A stretch of 62,510 nt of DNA, filler included, from an uncultured Thermoplasmatales archaeon (GCA_964517155.1; 5 parts of 5 records of this genome joined end to end with filler, not necessarily neighbours in it); one strand, 5' to 3'; shown: positions 1-9,000, counted from the whole stretch's first letter. Numbers: made by a program.

Positions 1-3000
1 TAGAGGGCACTGCAAAAACAGCGGCTCGTTTTGGTATTTCAGCGCTTATAATCTCAGTTTTACTTGTAGGATTTGGAACAAGTGCGCCAGAGTTTGCAAT
101 TTCTGTTGGTGCGGCTGCTCAAGGTCAGCAGGATATATCACTGGGTAATATAATTGGTTCATGTATTGCAAATCTTTTACTCGTGCTAGGTATAAGTGCC
201 ATTATACAACCAATAAAAATTAAAAAAGGCATAATACGTCGTGAAGTACCAATAATGGTTGGAGCAACATTTGTTTTGCTGTTTGCATCTATTACAGGTT
301 TACTTGATCAATATCATATTTTTGGCGGAATATTATTTCTTGTTCTTTTCATAGTTTTTGTATGGTTTTTTATAAAATGTGCAAAAAAAGAGCGTTTTTC
401 TGAAAAATCAAAATATGAAGATGTTGATAAGACAAGAAAGAATCTTTTGTTTATCGTTTTAGGTATTGCAGGTGTTGTGTTTGGTGCTTGGTTCTTAATA
501 GAATCTGCTATAACAATTGCATATATTTTTAATATTAGCCCATTTATAATTGCTCTTTCAATGGTTGCAGTAGGCACTAGTCTGCCTGAACTAGTTGTTT
601 CTGCAACTGCTTCTTATAAAGGCGAATCAGATATAACAGTAGGTAATGTTCTTGGTTCAAATGTTTTTAATATTCTTTTTATAATTGGGGTATCAGCACT
701 TTTTATATCACTTGGTGCTTTTAAATCAATAGATGATATAATATTTCTCATAATTATTAATCTTATACTGATTCCAATTCTTTGCGGTGGTCATACTATC
801 TCTTACAAAGAAGGAGTTTTTTTGATAGGGTTATATGTTTTTTATATTTGGTATATTTTCCAGGGTAGTTTTATAATTCCCACGCTTTTTAGCTGATAAA
901 TCAAACAATTGTTAAATACCTTAAACTTATTTTCTGGTTCTATTATGGATAAAGAAAAAAATGATTTTAAAAATGATATCTTGCCTGTTTTTTTAATGGG
1001 TCTTTTATTTATAATCATATATGGCCTTGTATTATTCTTAACAGAGCCTTTTATAACAGAAGGCGGTATACAACAAGCCTTTGAAGATATAAATGACCCT
1101 GTAAACATCTTAATGATAGTTGCAATAATGCTTGTAATAACTGTCACAATTCTTCTTATTGCCAAATACTGGAAAGATAAAATTATACAGATAATCATTC
1201 TTTTTGCAGTGGGTTATACTTCTTTTTATGCTTTCTTTTTACCTGTGCTAAGCATCCTTTTACCAGATTATCCAACTATAGTTTTGATTTCTTCGATACT
1301 ACTTGCAGTATTACTTATAGCTGCATTATACAAGTATCCTGAATGGTATGTTATAGACATATCAGGAATAATAATAGGGGTAGGTGCAATAATTATCTTT
1401 GGAATATCGCTGGGGATTCTACTAGTTTTGATATTATTAATCGCTCTTGCAATATATGATGCAATTTCTGTCTATAAAACCAAACATATGATAGATTTAG
1501 CAGATACAGTTATGGATTTAAAACTCCCAGTTTTACTAGTGATTCCTAAAACAAGGGGCTATTCACTTTTAAAAGAAACAAAAAGATTAAAAGAAAAACT
1601 TAAAGAAGGCGAAGAAAGAGATGCATTTTTTATGGGCCTTGGCGATATTGTAATGCCAGGGATTCTTGTTGCAGCAGTTTATCATCAGATACCTGCGCCT
1701 GAAGGATTTTTAATAGCAATCAGCACAATTTTAGGAATACTTGTAGGTTTTTCAGTTCTTATGACATTTGTCTTAAAAGGAAAACCACAAGCAGGACTAC
1801 CTTGTTTATGTGGTGGAGCAATAGCAGGTTATGTTATCTCTAGTTTAATTTTATTTGGTGAGCTTAAAGGGTTAGTTTTTATTTTTTAATAACTTTCCTT
1901 AAAACCACAATTTTCACACCAAATCTTTCTATCAAAATGATTTAGTTTATTTGCACATTTTGGGCAGTTTGCTTTTTCAAAAAAATGTTCAAGCCATATC
2001 TCTCTAACCTGAAGAACAGTTTCATTTTTAATTTTTATAAGCATATCTTTTAATTCTGGTGTATTTGCAAATTGTTCTAATTTTGAAAAATCAATTTCAC
2101 GGTTTTTTTGAGGTGCAAAAGAATCATAATACAAGGTTTTTCCTTCTTTTGTATGGCTTTTACGTCCCTTAAGTAAAATTGCGGCTAATACAAAACCTCC
2201 GATGAGTCCGCCAAGATGAGCAAAATGTGCAGTTTGATCTTGTACATCTAAAAAGACAATAACTGTTTCAAAAACTGCAAAAAGTAACACAGCATACATT
2301 ACTTTAATGCGACGTAAAACCATGAAAAAACCAAGGGGTATTGGCATTAACACTTCATCACGCGGGTAAGCAAACACAAGAGCACCCATAATGCCAAAAA
2401 TTGCACCAGAAGCACCTAATAAAGGAATTTCTGAACCAAGATCTGTAAATGAATGTGCTAGCGCACCACAAACACCTGATAAAAGATAAATAATTATGAA
2501 TTTTTTACTGCCTATTCTTTCTTCAAGTGCGGTTCCAATAAAGAAAAACACTAGCATGTTGCCGAGTATATGAGCAAATCCACCATGTATAAACATAGAT
2601 GTAAAAATTGTATACATTTGTGGAGAGTATTCTACAGTTAAATAAACGGATCTGAAGCTAAGACCTGCATAAGGAAAACCTGCACTAAAACCATATATTA
2701 TCTCATACTGAAATATCATTGTAATAATAAAAATTATAATATTTGAAAAAATCAAAGCATAAACAAGCATGATTTTTTTAGTATATGCAAAAATTAGAGC
2801 ACCTATTATTATACAGATGCACAATATTGCTGAAAAATGCTGTGGTAATAATATTAAGTCCATTTTCTTTTTCTCCAGTCTTGAGCAATTATAAGGAATG
2901 TAAAAGCATATATAACAATTATGTAAATCATGTTTTGATTATTAGTTTCTAATACAGGTGTCTCTGATTTAATGATAGTATTATCCTTTTTAAATGTCAC

Positions 3001-6000: not shown

Positions 6001-9000
6001 TTGAATCGTTCCTGTTTTTGTGTATATGTTTGTTTGACCTAATGTTGGTATAGTTGTTTCTACAAAATCAAGAACCGAGTTATTTGAGCGTGTTGGGCTT
6101 ATACGAATGAAACTACTGCCTTTTGCTGGACTGGGAAGTGTTTCTCCTGGAATTATTGAGTAGTTTAAACCCCATTTTATACTGTCAGCAATGGTTCCAT
6201 TTTCGTTTATTAGAAGCAGATAATCATTTGTGTTTCCAAGACCATTACCTATAGTATTATCATCAACCATGAAATGGATGATTGATTCATTTTCTGGAAT
6301 TGTCAATTCAGTATCTTTGTCAGTTATGATAACAAAAGTGTGTGGTGGAATAACTGGAGGTATTGATAAGTTTGCTGGAGATATATAATCAGTTGCATAA
6401 TTATCAGTTATTTTCCAACCTGAGAGATTAATGCTTTTGTTTCCAAAGTTATACAGTTCTATCCATTCATGTGTTGCATCAGATTCGATAGGACTAGCCA
6501 TTACTTCGTTTATGAGAATAGAGGAAGCTGCTGTTAAAACGCTAATAAATACAAAAAAAGCCAATAATATTAAGATAAGAAAAAAAAGTGAATAAGATAC
6601 TTTTCTTTTGTTAGTGTGTTTCAAACCAAAATTCTTATGATTTATCTCTGTTGAAAATGAAAGGGCGGAGAGGGATTTGAACCCTCGTATGCGGATCTGC
6701 AGTCCGCCACATAGCCACTTTGTTATCCGCCCAAATGGGAATACCAAATATAAAAAAGGGTATAATAAAGGTTTTTGAAGGTTATTATTAGTAAACATAA
6801 CCTATTATTTATTTTATTTTAAGATAAAATATTTCTGCTATAAAATGTAACAAATTATTATCTTTTTGGTATTATGCTTTTACGTTCTTTCCAATATTTT
6901 TCTTGTCTCAATTTTATAATCTTCAACATTTGGCTGATCAAAAGGATTAACTTTTAGTAAAAAACCTAGATACATCATCTCAATCATCTTGAACTGTAAT
7001 AATTGCCCTATACAATACTCGGATTTATCTGGTAAAATTATTTCCATAAATGGTCTTTTTCCTTTTTTAAAAGCTGTTTGTACTCCTAATAAAATAGCAT
7101 CCATCAATTCTTTTAATCTTTTTCCTTGTATAACATCTACTAACTTTGAATATTCATCTACATTGGGTACAACTACATCTGAATTATTTTGTTTTACATT
7201 AACAAATGTGGTAAATTTATCGTAAGGTCCTCCAAGATATATTTGTGCCATTGAATGTAGATCAACAGAAACTAGTGAAACCGTAGGAGTAATACCTTCA
7301 AAAACTCTTTTTTTATTTGTGTTAAATTCTTTACCAATGCTTTCACCCATAAGTTGTCTATACCATTTTCCAACTGATTCTAAATCATTTCCAACTAAAA
7401 ATAAATCATGAATGTTTTTACCTTTTTTATAATGAAGATAAATTAGTGTAGCACTTACGACTGCCGGATTTTCAAGCATATTAGTATCTAAACATCTGTT
7501 TTTCATTTCAGATGCACCTTTTAAAAGTTTATCAATGTTTACTCCAAGTAATCCCAACGGAAATAAACTTACTGGAGAAAAAACAGAAAATCTCCCTCCA
7601 ACTTTTTTTGGTATCTCCAGAACATCAAAACCTTTTTCTAGTGCATAATTCCAGTATTTTGAGTTTTTATCAGATGTAACCACTACATATTTTGCATAAT
7701 CTTTTTTATATTTTTTAAGCATCTCAACTAATATCTCAAAATTAGCTATAGTTTCAGTGGTCCCTCCTGATTTACTTACTCCATTAATAATGATATTTTC
7801 TCCTTTTTTCAAAACTGGTTTGATAATTTTTAGTATATCATTTATCAAATCAGGATCAACAGTATCAGCATATAATACTTTTATATCTGGGTTCAATTGA
7901 TTATACATTTTTCCTAATACTGCTTCTTGTACTGCCATTGTTCCTAGATTACTTCCACCAATACCAATGACAACTAGATAACGTGGTTTTAGTTTCTTTT
8001 TTTTGTCAATAAGCATTTTAACTTTTTGCAATGTTTGTTTATCATCAGGTAGATTAATTGAGGCTCTATCATCTTCATATCGTAGATTAACTGCTTTGTT
8101 CATGCAATTTATTTCGTCTATTAATTCTTCTGTGGCGTTTACAAGTTCTTTAGATGAAATTAAGCTTTTATCGTGCAAAAAAACTATTGAATCCATTTTA
8201 TTTTTTCACCTCAATTATCCAATTTCAAAAACAATAGTTGATTTATAACTGTATTTCTACGCAGAGATGCTACATAAATATAAATTATGTTAGAAATATT
8301 TGCTGTCAAGTTTTTTTAACCATCAATTTCGTCTTCCTTTGATTTATTTTTTTCCATGTATGATAAATCATTTTCTTTATTTTCTCGAAGGAAGTAATTT
8401 CGGGATAACACAAAATGTGATTTCTCAAAAAAAGTTTATAAACTATGAATGTATAAAAAATAATAAATTAAATAATAAAAGGTGGATAAAAAATATGAAA
8501 TTTAATAGACCAGCCGTTTTTTTATTAGTAGCTATTTTTTTAATAACAAATTGCATAAATGTTTTTGCTTTTCAAGCTCAAACACAAAAAAGCATTCTTT
8601 TTGAAAAAACAGAATATAATACAAAATCTATCCAGATAAATCTTAGTTTTTCCAAACCCGAAATAGTGCCTCATGGTAACTATTCTGTTGTTCGTGTAAA
8701 TGAGACAAATCATAATAGAATTATTTTATTTGATTATGATCCAGGTAAACCAGTTCTACCTGTAAATATAAGTGTTTTCAAATTACCTTTTGGTAGCAAA
8801 ATAATAAATGTTCATTATGAACATTCAATACCTCAAAAAATAAATCTTTCAGGCACACTTTCTTTTGGACGTGCTTCAATTGATACTCTATACGATTTTT
8901 CATCTAATTCAATTGATTTAAATATTTATCAAAGTGAGGAACCGTATCCTTCAAGCTGGGTTTCTTATCATACTGGAGGTGGTTTATCTTATGGTCAAAG

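Follow-up and report, generated by a model that had tools for sequence, protein, structure and literature searches.

Several systems are known that resemble, each in part, the locus analysed here. One of the closest is bacterial, the rhombosortase/GlyGly-CTERM system. There, Xds of Vibrio and ExeM of Shewanella are secreted hydrolases that have a lamin-tail domain (LTD), a C-terminal transmembrane (TM) helix and a basic cluster, as does the large protein described below (PMC3237569, PMC6085458, PMC6219818), and these LTD nucleases are processed by rhombosortase (PMC6219818, PMC6085458). Xds is missing from the supernatants of a rhombosortase mutant, and VesB carries lipid after rhombosortase cleavage (PMC6219818). 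Under the heading "tend to be adjacent", the GlyGly-CTERM protein and rhombosortase are reported together in 16 of 21 genomes that have a single such protein; where there is one target, its gene adjoins that of a rhomboid-family protease, as the gene of the large protein does here (PMC3237569).

In archaea, a related case is Haloferax volcanii, whose Rho1 and Rho2 bear a zinc-finger extension, like the rhomboid of this study, and affect the cell surface; the abstract describes the natural substrates of archaeal rhomboids as still unknown and reports no conserved neighbouring candidate substrate for Rho1/Rho2 (PMC11985538). As for the phylum considered here, which is not that of Haloferax, a literature search on Thermoplasmatota, Thermoprofundales and MBG-D had neither "rhomboid" nor "lamin tail" among the matches listed.

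The locus belongs to an uncultured Thermoplasmatales archaeon (Thermoplasmatota, GCA_964517155.1), and the window, i.e., the whole stretch of DNA that was analysed, is 62,510 nt long. It involves three genes: a presenilin homologue (PSH), a rhomboid protease, and a giant protein with LTDs and a PLD-type catalytic module. The first-pass annotation had assigned these genes their domains, and the ORF calls together with the Pfam and NCBIfam matches agree with it. The rhomboid and the giant are adjacent on one strand, as had been claimed, with an overlap of 10 nt between the stop of the giant and the start of the rhomboid. The two proteases had also been said to flank the giant; in fact, both are on its 3′ side, and the stops of PSH and rhomboid overlap convergently. 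The rhomboid motifs quoted earlier (GASGAIFG and AHLGG) and the C-terminus of the giant (...NQNMIYIIVIYAFTFLIIAQDWRKRKWT) are found in the sequence, and so is the zinc ribbon. A whole-genome search gave a single rhomboid and a single PLD protein for this organism.

Table. Features of the locus, with positions counted along the window.
Feature	Position (nt)	Strand	Remarks
PSH/SPP, presenilin homologue, family A22	945..1889	+	ATG 945; open frame from TTG 909 (ORF call)
YD motif (IYDAI)	from 1452	+	PSH
GLGD motif	from 1635	+	PSH
Rhomboid serine protease	1886..2863	-	325 aa; only rhomboid of the genome; convergent with PSH
Rhomboid cytoplasmic C-terminal domain	1889..2146	-	Three helices and zinc ribbon; model pLDDT 86.5
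Zinc ribbon CPKC...CENC	1907..1966	-	Rhomboid C-terminal domain
AHLGG (His216)	2207..2221	-	Rhomboid
GASGA (Ser152)	2402..2416	-	Rhomboid
LTD/PLD giant, maximal frame	2854..6798	-	Same strand as rhomboid, upstream of it
LTD/PLD surface protein, probable true coding region	2854..6624	-	~1,256 aa, TTG start
Disordered linker, TM helix and stub	2857..2988	-	Linker pLDDT <50
Cytoplasmic stub QDWRKRKWT	2857..2883	-	Read from sequence
Putative rhomboid expression signals	2861..2927	-	Within the last 23 codons of the giant
Rhomboid ATG	2861..2863	-	Inside the last codons of the giant
Shine-Dalgarno GGAG	2873..2876	-	Rhomboid
C-terminal TM helix of the giant	2884..2931	-	Model residues 403-426
TATA-like box TTATATAT	2908..2915	-	Promoter role inferred
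TATA-like box TTTACATA	2920..2927	-	Promoter role inferred
Two-HKD PLD-fold catalytic module	2989..4092	-	Model pLDDT 88.3
HKD2 HNKGAIID	3139..3162	-	PLD module
HKD1 HAKYVVLD	3751..3774	-	PLD module
Lamin-tail domain 2	4264..4653	-	42.5 bits, cut-off 34.3
Spacer, Ig-like and CARDB domains	4693..5367	-	Profile matches
Lamin-tail domain 1	6169..6531	-	65.5 bits, cut-off 34.3
Signal peptide, Sec-type	6520..6624	-	Basic n-region, hydrophobic core, TAASS; read from sequence
tRNA-Cys(GCA)	6662..6732	-	Directly upstream of the giant, same direction

The length of the giant needs a correction. It had been given as 1,314 aa, but a frame of 1,314 codons swallows the tRNA-Cys gene, which was found at this place in each of 13 related loci scanned. 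Residues 1-46 of the frame owe their ~85% identity with other genomes solely to being translated tRNA. Most likely, the real start is TTG 6624, and the protein begins M-KHTNKRKVSYSLFFLILILLAFFVFISVLTAASS and comprises ~1,256 aa; its orthologues start at equivalent alternative start codons, just ahead of the signal peptide. With a predicted signal peptide at this start, the giant is therefore a type I surface protein, and its topology, as far as the sequence tells, suits a rhomboid substrate: after the signal peptide, the ectodomain would be outside, followed by a single TM helix at the C-terminus and, inside, a basic stub.

What would such an ectoenzyme act upon? LTD membership (PF00932) is clear, with 96.7 bits for the whole protein and both copies above the cut-off, while the Ig-like/CARDB spacer is missing from the ~800-aa orthologues. 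The catalytic part belongs to the two-HKD PLD superfamily: it has two PLDc_2 domains (126.8 bits against a Pfam cut-off of 27) and two HxK(x)4D motifs, both H-K-D triads are invariant in 31 sequences, and its model gives Z scores of 25-36 to solved PLD-fold enzymes. The nearest of these are PLD4 and PLD3 (Z 36.0, rmsd 2.5, 314-319 residues aligned, 16-18% identity); lower scores include those of the PLD 7e0m (Z 34.9), E. coli PssA (Z 32), human PLD2 (Z 31) and a Streptomyces PLD (Z ~28). This ranking is that of VIA-align; Foldseek E-values gave no separation of the subfamilies. PLD3 and PLD4, mammalian lysosomal 5′ exonucleases, are membrane-anchored ectoenzymes as the giant would be. Their anchor is N-terminal (type II), whereas that of the giant is C-terminal, and the giant has LTD and Ig accessory domains in addition.

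The fold alone cannot tell a nuclease from a lipid-directed PLD, given the places that PssA and PLD2 take in the ranking. On the sequence side, the best NCBIfam partial matches are with the nuclease-type models NucT (E 1e-20; 62.7 bits against an equivalog cut-off of 297) and DrmC of DISARM (E 3e-17; 74.1 against 133); these are related half-domains, and the giant is a member of neither equivalog. Cardiolipin synthase (ClsB, TIGR04265) is matched less well (E 1e-7; 31.5 bits against 281 and 28.6 against 290), and a PDB sequence search had Zucchini 4ggj as sole match (E 6.6e-4). LTDs occur in the extracellular nucleases ExeM/Xds (PMC6085458) and in an Izemoplasmatales nuclease (PMC8289736). It is because of this PLD3/4- and Nuc-like character, and of the LTD partners, that extracellular nucleic acid is proposed as the substrate, which the giant would most probably hydrolyse at the cell surface. 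Overall, the balance leans to nucleic acid over phospholipid. That the module works instead on lipids, hydrolysing or exchanging head groups of the cell's own or of foreign membranes, is the less likely alternative, although PssA, PLD2 and 7e0m rank near the top and the model puts the module only ~20 residues away from the membrane; against this stand the first rank of the PLD3/4 exonucleases, the better NucT and DrmC matches and the nucleases with which LTDs are associated. Uncharacterised surface phosphodiesterases of this kind are widespread in Thermoplasmatota, 311 of 401 sampled genomes having a relative; if a nuclease, the enzyme bears on the use of extracellular DNA by these archaea.

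The rhomboid itself is a clear member of its family. It scores 121.2 bits with Rhomboid PF01694 (MEROPS S54), for which 22.6 suffices, and the TM2 residues H93 and N102, G150-A151-S152 with the catalytic Ser (TM4) and A215-H216 with the catalytic His (TM6) are invariant in 31 class-wide rhomboids. With the rhombosortase equivalog (TIGR03902) it reaches 35.8 bits, below the cut-off of 84: unlike rhombosortase, it is the general rhomboid of the cell, whose 6-TM core is preceded by an additional TM helix and followed by a zinc-ribbon tail. In this C-terminal domain W, C, P, C and C are invariant; Pfam gave only sub-threshold zinc-ribbon matches for it, and Foldseek no PDB match at E<=0.001. The zinc finger of the Haloferax rhomboids is N-terminal. 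Other features also set this locus apart from the bacterial system, namely that it is archaeal, has no Gly-Gly motif and no type II secretion step, and that the catalytic domain is PLD-fold instead of the EEP of Xds/ExeM.

The association of the genes is old. Of 110 genomes of the order, 105 have the tail of the giant immediately next to the rhomboid start and on its strand, and 89 of these 105 tails sit in frames of at least 130 aa; the spacing is most often -6 nt (47 genomes) or -3 nt (20 genomes). A convergent PSH no more than 100 nt from the rhomboid is found in 99 of the 110. The counts of the first-pass annotation (SPP-Rhomboid, 87 of 117; Rhomboid-PLDc_2, 66 of 117) were lower, and the PLD-rhomboid adjacency extends well beyond what it had recorded. 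Five other families of the class were sampled at 19 loci (GC 31-70%, PLD identity 25-39%), and in 18 of them a C-terminally TM-anchored PLD immediately precedes the rhomboid orthologue, whereas in the 19th the two are 2.7 kb apart. Beyond the class, 6 of 20 loci had the pair, and theirs are the PLDs most similar to the giant. The PLD-to-rhomboid order, mostly with stop/start overlap, is kept class-wide and in some lineages beyond.

Across the phylum, co-occurrence of the two genes is not strict. In family f12, the PLD is present in 48 of 48 genomes and this rhomboid in 2 of 48, while in f29 the counts are 0 of 5 and 5 of 5, respectively. In many genomes the two genes lie far apart, the rhomboid is widespread away from the PLD gene, and there are TM-anchored PLDs with no rhomboid nearby. 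Sampled loci of f33 and f15, which we take to be marine Group II, had neither a rhomboid next to the PLD nor a C-terminal TM helix at its very end.

Is a functional link needed to explain this order? Possibly not, since the conserved tail is partly dual coding, with the Shine-Dalgarno, the start codon and a TATA-like box of the rhomboid inside it. GGAG is invariant, even in a genome with 54% GC and where the Trp codon became Arg; the codons ACT, ATT and TAT are kept at 24/25, 25/26 and 26/27 sites against backgrounds of 28%, 41% and 75%; and ACTATTTATAT is under synonymous-site constraint. Much of the conservation of the tail is at the DNA level and concerns the expression signals of the rhomboid, which would keep the gene order without any enzymatic link. 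The pair may be a matter of architecture only, i.e., an ancient synteny fixed by these signals, with a housekeeping rhomboid and a permanent TM anchor. The decoupling of PLD and rhomboid in other families and the TM-anchored PLDs that stand alone agree with this, as does the wider synteny, in which the Na/Ca exchanger, PSH and rhomboid are also kept. Still, we consider this explanation less likely than not. A pair that spans 31-70% GC and PLD identities down to 25% outlasts the usual neutral synteny, and the other flank of the giant varies among genomes. Furthermore, part of the tail is constrained as protein: the middle of the TM helix keeps the residues IFTMTF with varying synonymous codons, and the juxtamembrane R-D that follows the helix recurs outside the class, even with the rhomboid start >100 nt away.

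There is a warning in this tail: what looks like a sorting signal, a sharply conserved C-terminal peptide, can turn out to be regulatory DNA belonging to the gene that follows, and it can persist after its own coding gene is gone. A many-to-one sorting signal was considered and rejected, as the tail of the giant is alone among the 3,104 frames of the genome. Where the TM helix begins, the tail shows neither a small-residue nor a Gly-rich motif; it contains no PGF/PEF motif and no CTERM model was matched in the NCBIfam scan, so that it does not qualify as an archaeosortase target (PGF-CTERM and relatives), although the genome was not searched for an archaeosortase, and its sequence ...ETNNQNMIYI... 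is without the GlyGly of GlyGly-CTERM targets.

About ten genomes of the order have lost the giant and retain a ~100-nt relic of the tail, while the rhomboid persists with its catalytic residues intact. Nothing but the relic is left between tRNA-Cys and rhomboid, and three giant-less loci had no decayed PLD fragments there; such remains, as well as G048, where the tail was duplicated upon a gene insertion, speak for architecture only. Because the rhomboid survives the loss of the giant, it is not dedicated to it, and the dual-coding tail and the loose co-occurrence likewise make a dedicated substrate less likely. The idea that the relics are conserved TM mini-proteins was mostly rejected: 4 of 11 lack any in-frame ATG/GTG/TTG, 1 contains a frameshift, in 3 all start codons lie at the TM helix or within it, and in several the helix contains Asp/Glu/His/Asn; a possible start ahead of the helix is present only in G088 (ATG), G054 (TTG) and G055 (TTG beside the tRNA).

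Taken singly, the best reading is still that the rhomboid cuts the TM anchor of the giant and the ectoenzyme is released from the cell, although its chances are somewhat below even. The rhombosortase/GlyGly-CTERM logic would here be reduced to a single target. The start and signals of the rhomboid lie inside the last codons of the giant, and therefore two routes to the protease can be envisaged, one by read-through from the giant or translational coupling with it, the other from the TATA-like box and Shine-Dalgarno that belong to the rhomboid. A predicted complex of the rhomboid with the 45-residue tail gave no answer (score 0.00, in a run without controls) and weighs on neither side. The giant is a good, unproven candidate for a natural substrate of an archaeal rhomboid, and the locus offers one concrete case of this kind with class-wide gene linkage. 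A bolder version is more tentative: an ancient, class-wide protease-cargo pair that sheds a PLD3/4-like LTD surface nuclease, with the promoter and ribosome-binding site of the protease in the TM codons of its cargo, would be the first natural substrate of any archaeal rhomboid and an independently evolved counterpart of Xds/ExeM.

A link without shedding can also be imagined. The anchor might be cut and the new C-terminus re-attached to lipid, as rhombosortase does, or the TM helix might be a stable partner or regulator of the rhomboid. The stop-start overlap suggests coupled synthesis, the helix is conserved beyond the needs of a passive anchor, and the lipid on VesB is a precedent. Such a link is nonetheless improbable, in view of the missed rhombosortase model, the lack of a GlyGly motif and a rhomboid that stays intact without the giant.

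Finally, there is the question of the second protease. PSH is a clear member of its family (archaeal PSH equivalog NF041679, 299.4 bits against 125; Pfam SPP, 243 bits), and similarity to its orthologues sets in at about residue 12 when the frame is read from TTG. Type I stubs are substrates of presenilin-type enzymes, so that PSH might cut the anchor of the giant or, as the second step of an intramembrane cascade, remove the stub that remains after rhomboid cleavage. What speaks for such a role is adjacency, in the order as given above and in 13 of 13 loci of families f8 and f9, and this linkage holds in part of the class: all 6 loci of f4, f5 and f6 lack it, as do the 6 pairs from outside the class. 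PSH is convergent to the rhomboid and therefore outside the operon, and the adjacency is held equally in genomes without the giant; a part for PSH is very unlikely, and the pattern of its adjacency fits inherited synteny.

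The locus lies on a single contig (window positions 1..11091, C49:67012-78102). The domain calls of the first-pass annotation for the presenilin homologue (PSH), the rhomboid, and the large protein with lamin-tail domains (LTDs) and a PLD module, here called the giant, were matched by Pfam and NCBIfam, and the sequence contains the rhomboid motifs as quoted, along with the zinc ribbon and the C-terminal end of the giant. The adjacency of giant and rhomboid on one strand also holds, with the rhomboid ATG 10 nt ahead of the giant's stop, but the two proteases stand on the same side of the giant, not one on each: 3' of it come first the rhomboid and then PSH, which is convergent with the rhomboid and faces its 3' end.

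Features of the locus in window coordinates
Feature	Position	Strand	Remarks
Na/Ca exchanger	3..896	(+)	
PSH	945..1889	(+)	299 bits vs cut-off 125 (Pfam/NCBIfam)
Rhomboid	1886..2863	(-)	121 bits (Pfam/NCBIfam)
Rhomboid cytoplasmic domain	1889..2113		residues ~250-305
LTD/PLD giant, open frame	2854..6798	(-)	two LTDs (ORF residues ~90-210 and ~716-845), Ig-like stretch, CARDB (ORF residues 592-702), two PLDc_2
tRNA-Cys(GCA)	6662..6732	(-)	
Phosphoglucose isomerase	6880..8196	(-)	
C25 (gingipain-type) peptidase, 727 aa	8300..10483	(+)	

One correction concerns the length of the giant, previously taken as 1,314 aa. The frame of 1,314 codons contains the tRNA-Cys gene, and the ~85% identity of residues 1-46 across genomes arises solely from translation of that tRNA. 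Downstream, the first start codon in frame is a TTG at 6624, which opens a signal peptide (basic, hydrophobic, TAASS) that orthologues share at equivalent alternative start codons; the giant is therefore most likely a type I protein of ~1,256 aa. The topology predicted from these features is an ectodomain outside, a single C-terminal transmembrane helix (TM), and QDWRKRKWT in the cytoplasm. Both PLDc_2 halves, within a PLD module of ORF residues ~885-1270, carry intact HKD motifs (HAKYVVLD and HNKGAIID). The co-directional tRNA ends 37 nt before the TTG, and no obvious Shine-Dalgarno sequence was seen in between; because of this arrangement, tRNA-Cys and giant might form a tRNA-mRNA co-transcript. 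The tRNA was upstream in 13/13 further loci scanned (L004-L006, L009-L011, L015, L016, L019, L021-L023, L105).

How widely is this gene order kept? Rhomboid and PSH are each present in 112/118 species genomes of the order, and the giant in 103/118 (E<=1e-10), while a profile of its last 45 residues matches 106/118. Gap statistics were computed by a script over typed coordinates for 110 order genomes, G078 and G106 being left out because they match the rhomboid C-terminal domain only, and weakly. In 105 of these, the giant's tail and the rhomboid start abut, both on one strand, and most gaps are -6 or -3 nt; 89 of the 105 tails sit in frames of at least 130 aa (one, in G085, is really a frameshifted relic) and 16 in short frames. 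No tail abuts the rhomboid start in the other five (G035, G038, G063, G064, G110). A convergent PSH lies no more than 100 nt from the rhomboid in 99/110 genomes; in another 6 the distance is up to 5 kb.

In the class, the PLD module matches 168/197 genomes. Beyond the order, 19 loci sampled from five families (f4, f5, f6, f8, f9; GC 31-70%, PLD identity 25-39%) were compared, and in all of them the rhomboid orthologue has a PLD protein upstream, 580-1,123 aa long and with a TM and a basic tail at its C-terminus; the two abut or overlap in 18/19 and are 2.7 kb apart in 1/19. PSH is adjacent in 13/13 loci of f8 and f9 and in 0/6 of the others, and any role for it in the pair seems very improbable. 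Outside the class, the module matches 311/401 sampled phylum genomes. A rhomboid lies directly downstream of the PLD in 6/20 loci (gaps -4 to 248 nt), and these six PLDs are the ones most similar to the giant's (36-43% identity); the remaining 14/20 have none directly downstream.

The proposal that the rhomboid cleaves the giant's TM anchor fits the giant's topology and the co-directional, often overlapping gene order, deeply kept across the class and beyond. Bacteria offer a precedent in rhombosortase and its target, encoded side by side: for genomes with a single GlyGly-CTERM protein, the portion available of PMC3237569 reports it together with rhombosortase in 16/21, under "tend to be adjacent". 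Such targets include the LTD nucleases Xds and ExeM, the activity of the latter being independent of rhombosortase, according to the available sections of PMC6219818 and PMC6085458. Against cleavage stands the phylum-wide picture, in which PLD and rhomboid are not co-distributed (PLD 48/48 and rhomboid 2/48 in family f12, 0/5 and 5/5 in f29, 3/10 and 9/10 in f30) and in many genomes are both present, far apart. Nor was a recognizable rhomboid-type or GlyGly-type motif found in the tail. On balance, cleavage of the anchor is a tentative reading, to which we give somewhat less than an even chance; functional links of another kind between giant and rhomboid are improbable.

The tail consensus, (D/E)YKN-tIYIvvIFTMTFaxIaRDWRKRxWT, resembles a sorting signal. 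As a shared signal it was rejected, as it occurs in one protein only (1/3,104 frames of >=80 aa). Much of its conservation is due to signals at the DNA level. The TGG-AGA (Trp-Arg) codons form a GGAG 8-10 nt before the rhomboid ATG, which itself lies within Lys-Trp codons of the giant. This GGAG is invariant, even in a genome of 54% GC, and is retained where Trp has become Arg (CGG-AGG in L016, CGG-AGA in G091). Further upstream, the N-T-I-Y-I codons AAC ACT ATT TAT ATA form a TATA-like box, TTTATATA, 56 nt before the ATG; the window's copy reads TTTACATA, with TTATATAT immediately after. Among 27 distinct tails with this motif, drawn from the window and 46 order loci (tails lacking the motif were excluded), Thr is ACT at 24/25 sites (background 28%), Ile is ATT at 25/26 (41%), TAT occurs at 26/27 (75%), and AAC at 21/27 (35%), a pattern to which no probability is attached because the sequences are related. 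Genome-wide, GGAG peaks at -20..-11 (128 occurrences vs 11-21 per bin further upstream) and TTTAWATA at -70..-31, so that leadered mRNAs with Shine-Dalgarno sequences are the norm here. We read the tail DNA as a putative promoter and ribosome-binding site of the rhomboid, signals that would also hold the gene order in place mechanically. They supply a non-enzymatic reason for the linkage, which counts against cleavage. That this architecture alone explains the linkage is rather unlikely: the TM core IFTMTF shows synonymous codon variation among tails, and the R-D at its inner end recurs outside the class at loci whose rhomboid starts >100 nt off, so that some protein-level constraint remains, a point in favor of cleavage.

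Loss of the giant is also informative. It is wholly lost in nine order genomes (G054, G055, G059, G088-G091, G096, G112), three of them single contigs, with no PLD match besides the tail itself; in G085 it survives only as an N-terminal fragment on another contig. In all ten, a stretch of tail DNA of ~100 nt that ends ...GGAGAAAAAGAAAATG is still in place next to the rhomboid. Eleven relics were inspected, the second copy in G048 being counted as one of them. An in-frame start codon is absent from four, and another is frameshifted; in three, starts occur nowhere but at or within the TM, and three could start ahead of it. The TM of several contains charged or polar residues. The tRNA-Cys remains upstream of the rhomboid even after the loss, and between the two, three giant-less loci show no detectable trace of the PLD other than the tail. 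In G048 (L112, G048:C18:7700-8700), a 0.75-kb insert with an opposite-strand 128-aa ORF separates giant and rhomboid, and the ~100-nt tail segment is duplicated, one copy on each side. The persistence of the cell's sole rhomboid after giant loss, with catalytic residues intact, argues against cleavage of the anchor. The genome under study (1.59 Mb, 90.8% complete) has one rhomboid and one PLD protein.

The PLD module was modeled (pLDDT 88.3, pTM 0.85) as a two-HKD fold, after which come a disordered linker of ~18 residues and the TM helix. VIA-align gave PLD4/PLD3 (Z 36.0, rmsd 2.5, 314-319 residues aligned), the PLD 7e0m (34.9), Vaccinia F13 (32.8), E. coli PssA (32.0), human PLD2 (31), Streptomyces PLD (~28), and PPK (~25). 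Partial NCBIfam matches, all below their own cut-offs, place the nuclease-type halves DrmC (1e-20) and NucT (3e-17) ahead of cardiolipin synthase (1e-7), and bacterial extracellular nucleases are accompanied by LTDs, as described in the accessible parts of PMC6085458 and PMC8289736. The substrate is somewhat more likely than not a nucleic acid; a lipid is a rather unlikely one.

In an alignment of 31 class-wide rhomboids, H93, N102, GAS152G, and AH216 are conserved, as are an additional N-terminal TM and the cytoplasmic domain. This domain comprises three helices and a zinc ribbon (W, C, P, C, C invariant), and no significant PDB neighbor of it was found. Stand-alone homologues of this domain occur as small ORFs in many order genomes (frames of 64-146 aa, E 1e-4 to 1e-7).

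What is new is a dedicated-looking rhomboid/target pair, here archaeal, with a general rhomboid and a PLD-fold cargo; it differs from the known kind also by the regulatory signals within the cargo's TM codons. According to the part available of PMC11985538, archaeal rhomboids had no identified natural substrate as of 2025, and the literature on rhomboids or lamin tails in Thermoplasmatota, covered in part, held nothing on a PLD-rhomboid pair.

Some observations concern the surroundings. L005, L019, L063, L064, and L067 likewise have C25 homologues in the neighborhood of the cluster. Synteny on the PSH side extends, in many family f1 genomes (L005-L010, L019, L021-L023), to a block made up of the Na/Ca exchanger and two ORFs of ~269 and ~620 aa; local gene order in this lineage is therefore stable in general. 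As a scaffold, the window is made up of six contigs with N runs between them (352 N in total); its positions 55080..62510 match contig C57 at 100% and C58 at 89.5% over 7.4 kb, so that this stretch exists in the assembly as two diverged copies or as strain variants. Elsewhere in the genome, four proteins of ~1,150-1,205 aa (contigs C19, C37 with two genes, and C76) share a C-terminal GHMPFGAT(E/S)YP ahead of a TM helix and a Lys-rich terminus; unlike the giant's tail, this is a candidate for a sorting signal of the many-to-one kind.
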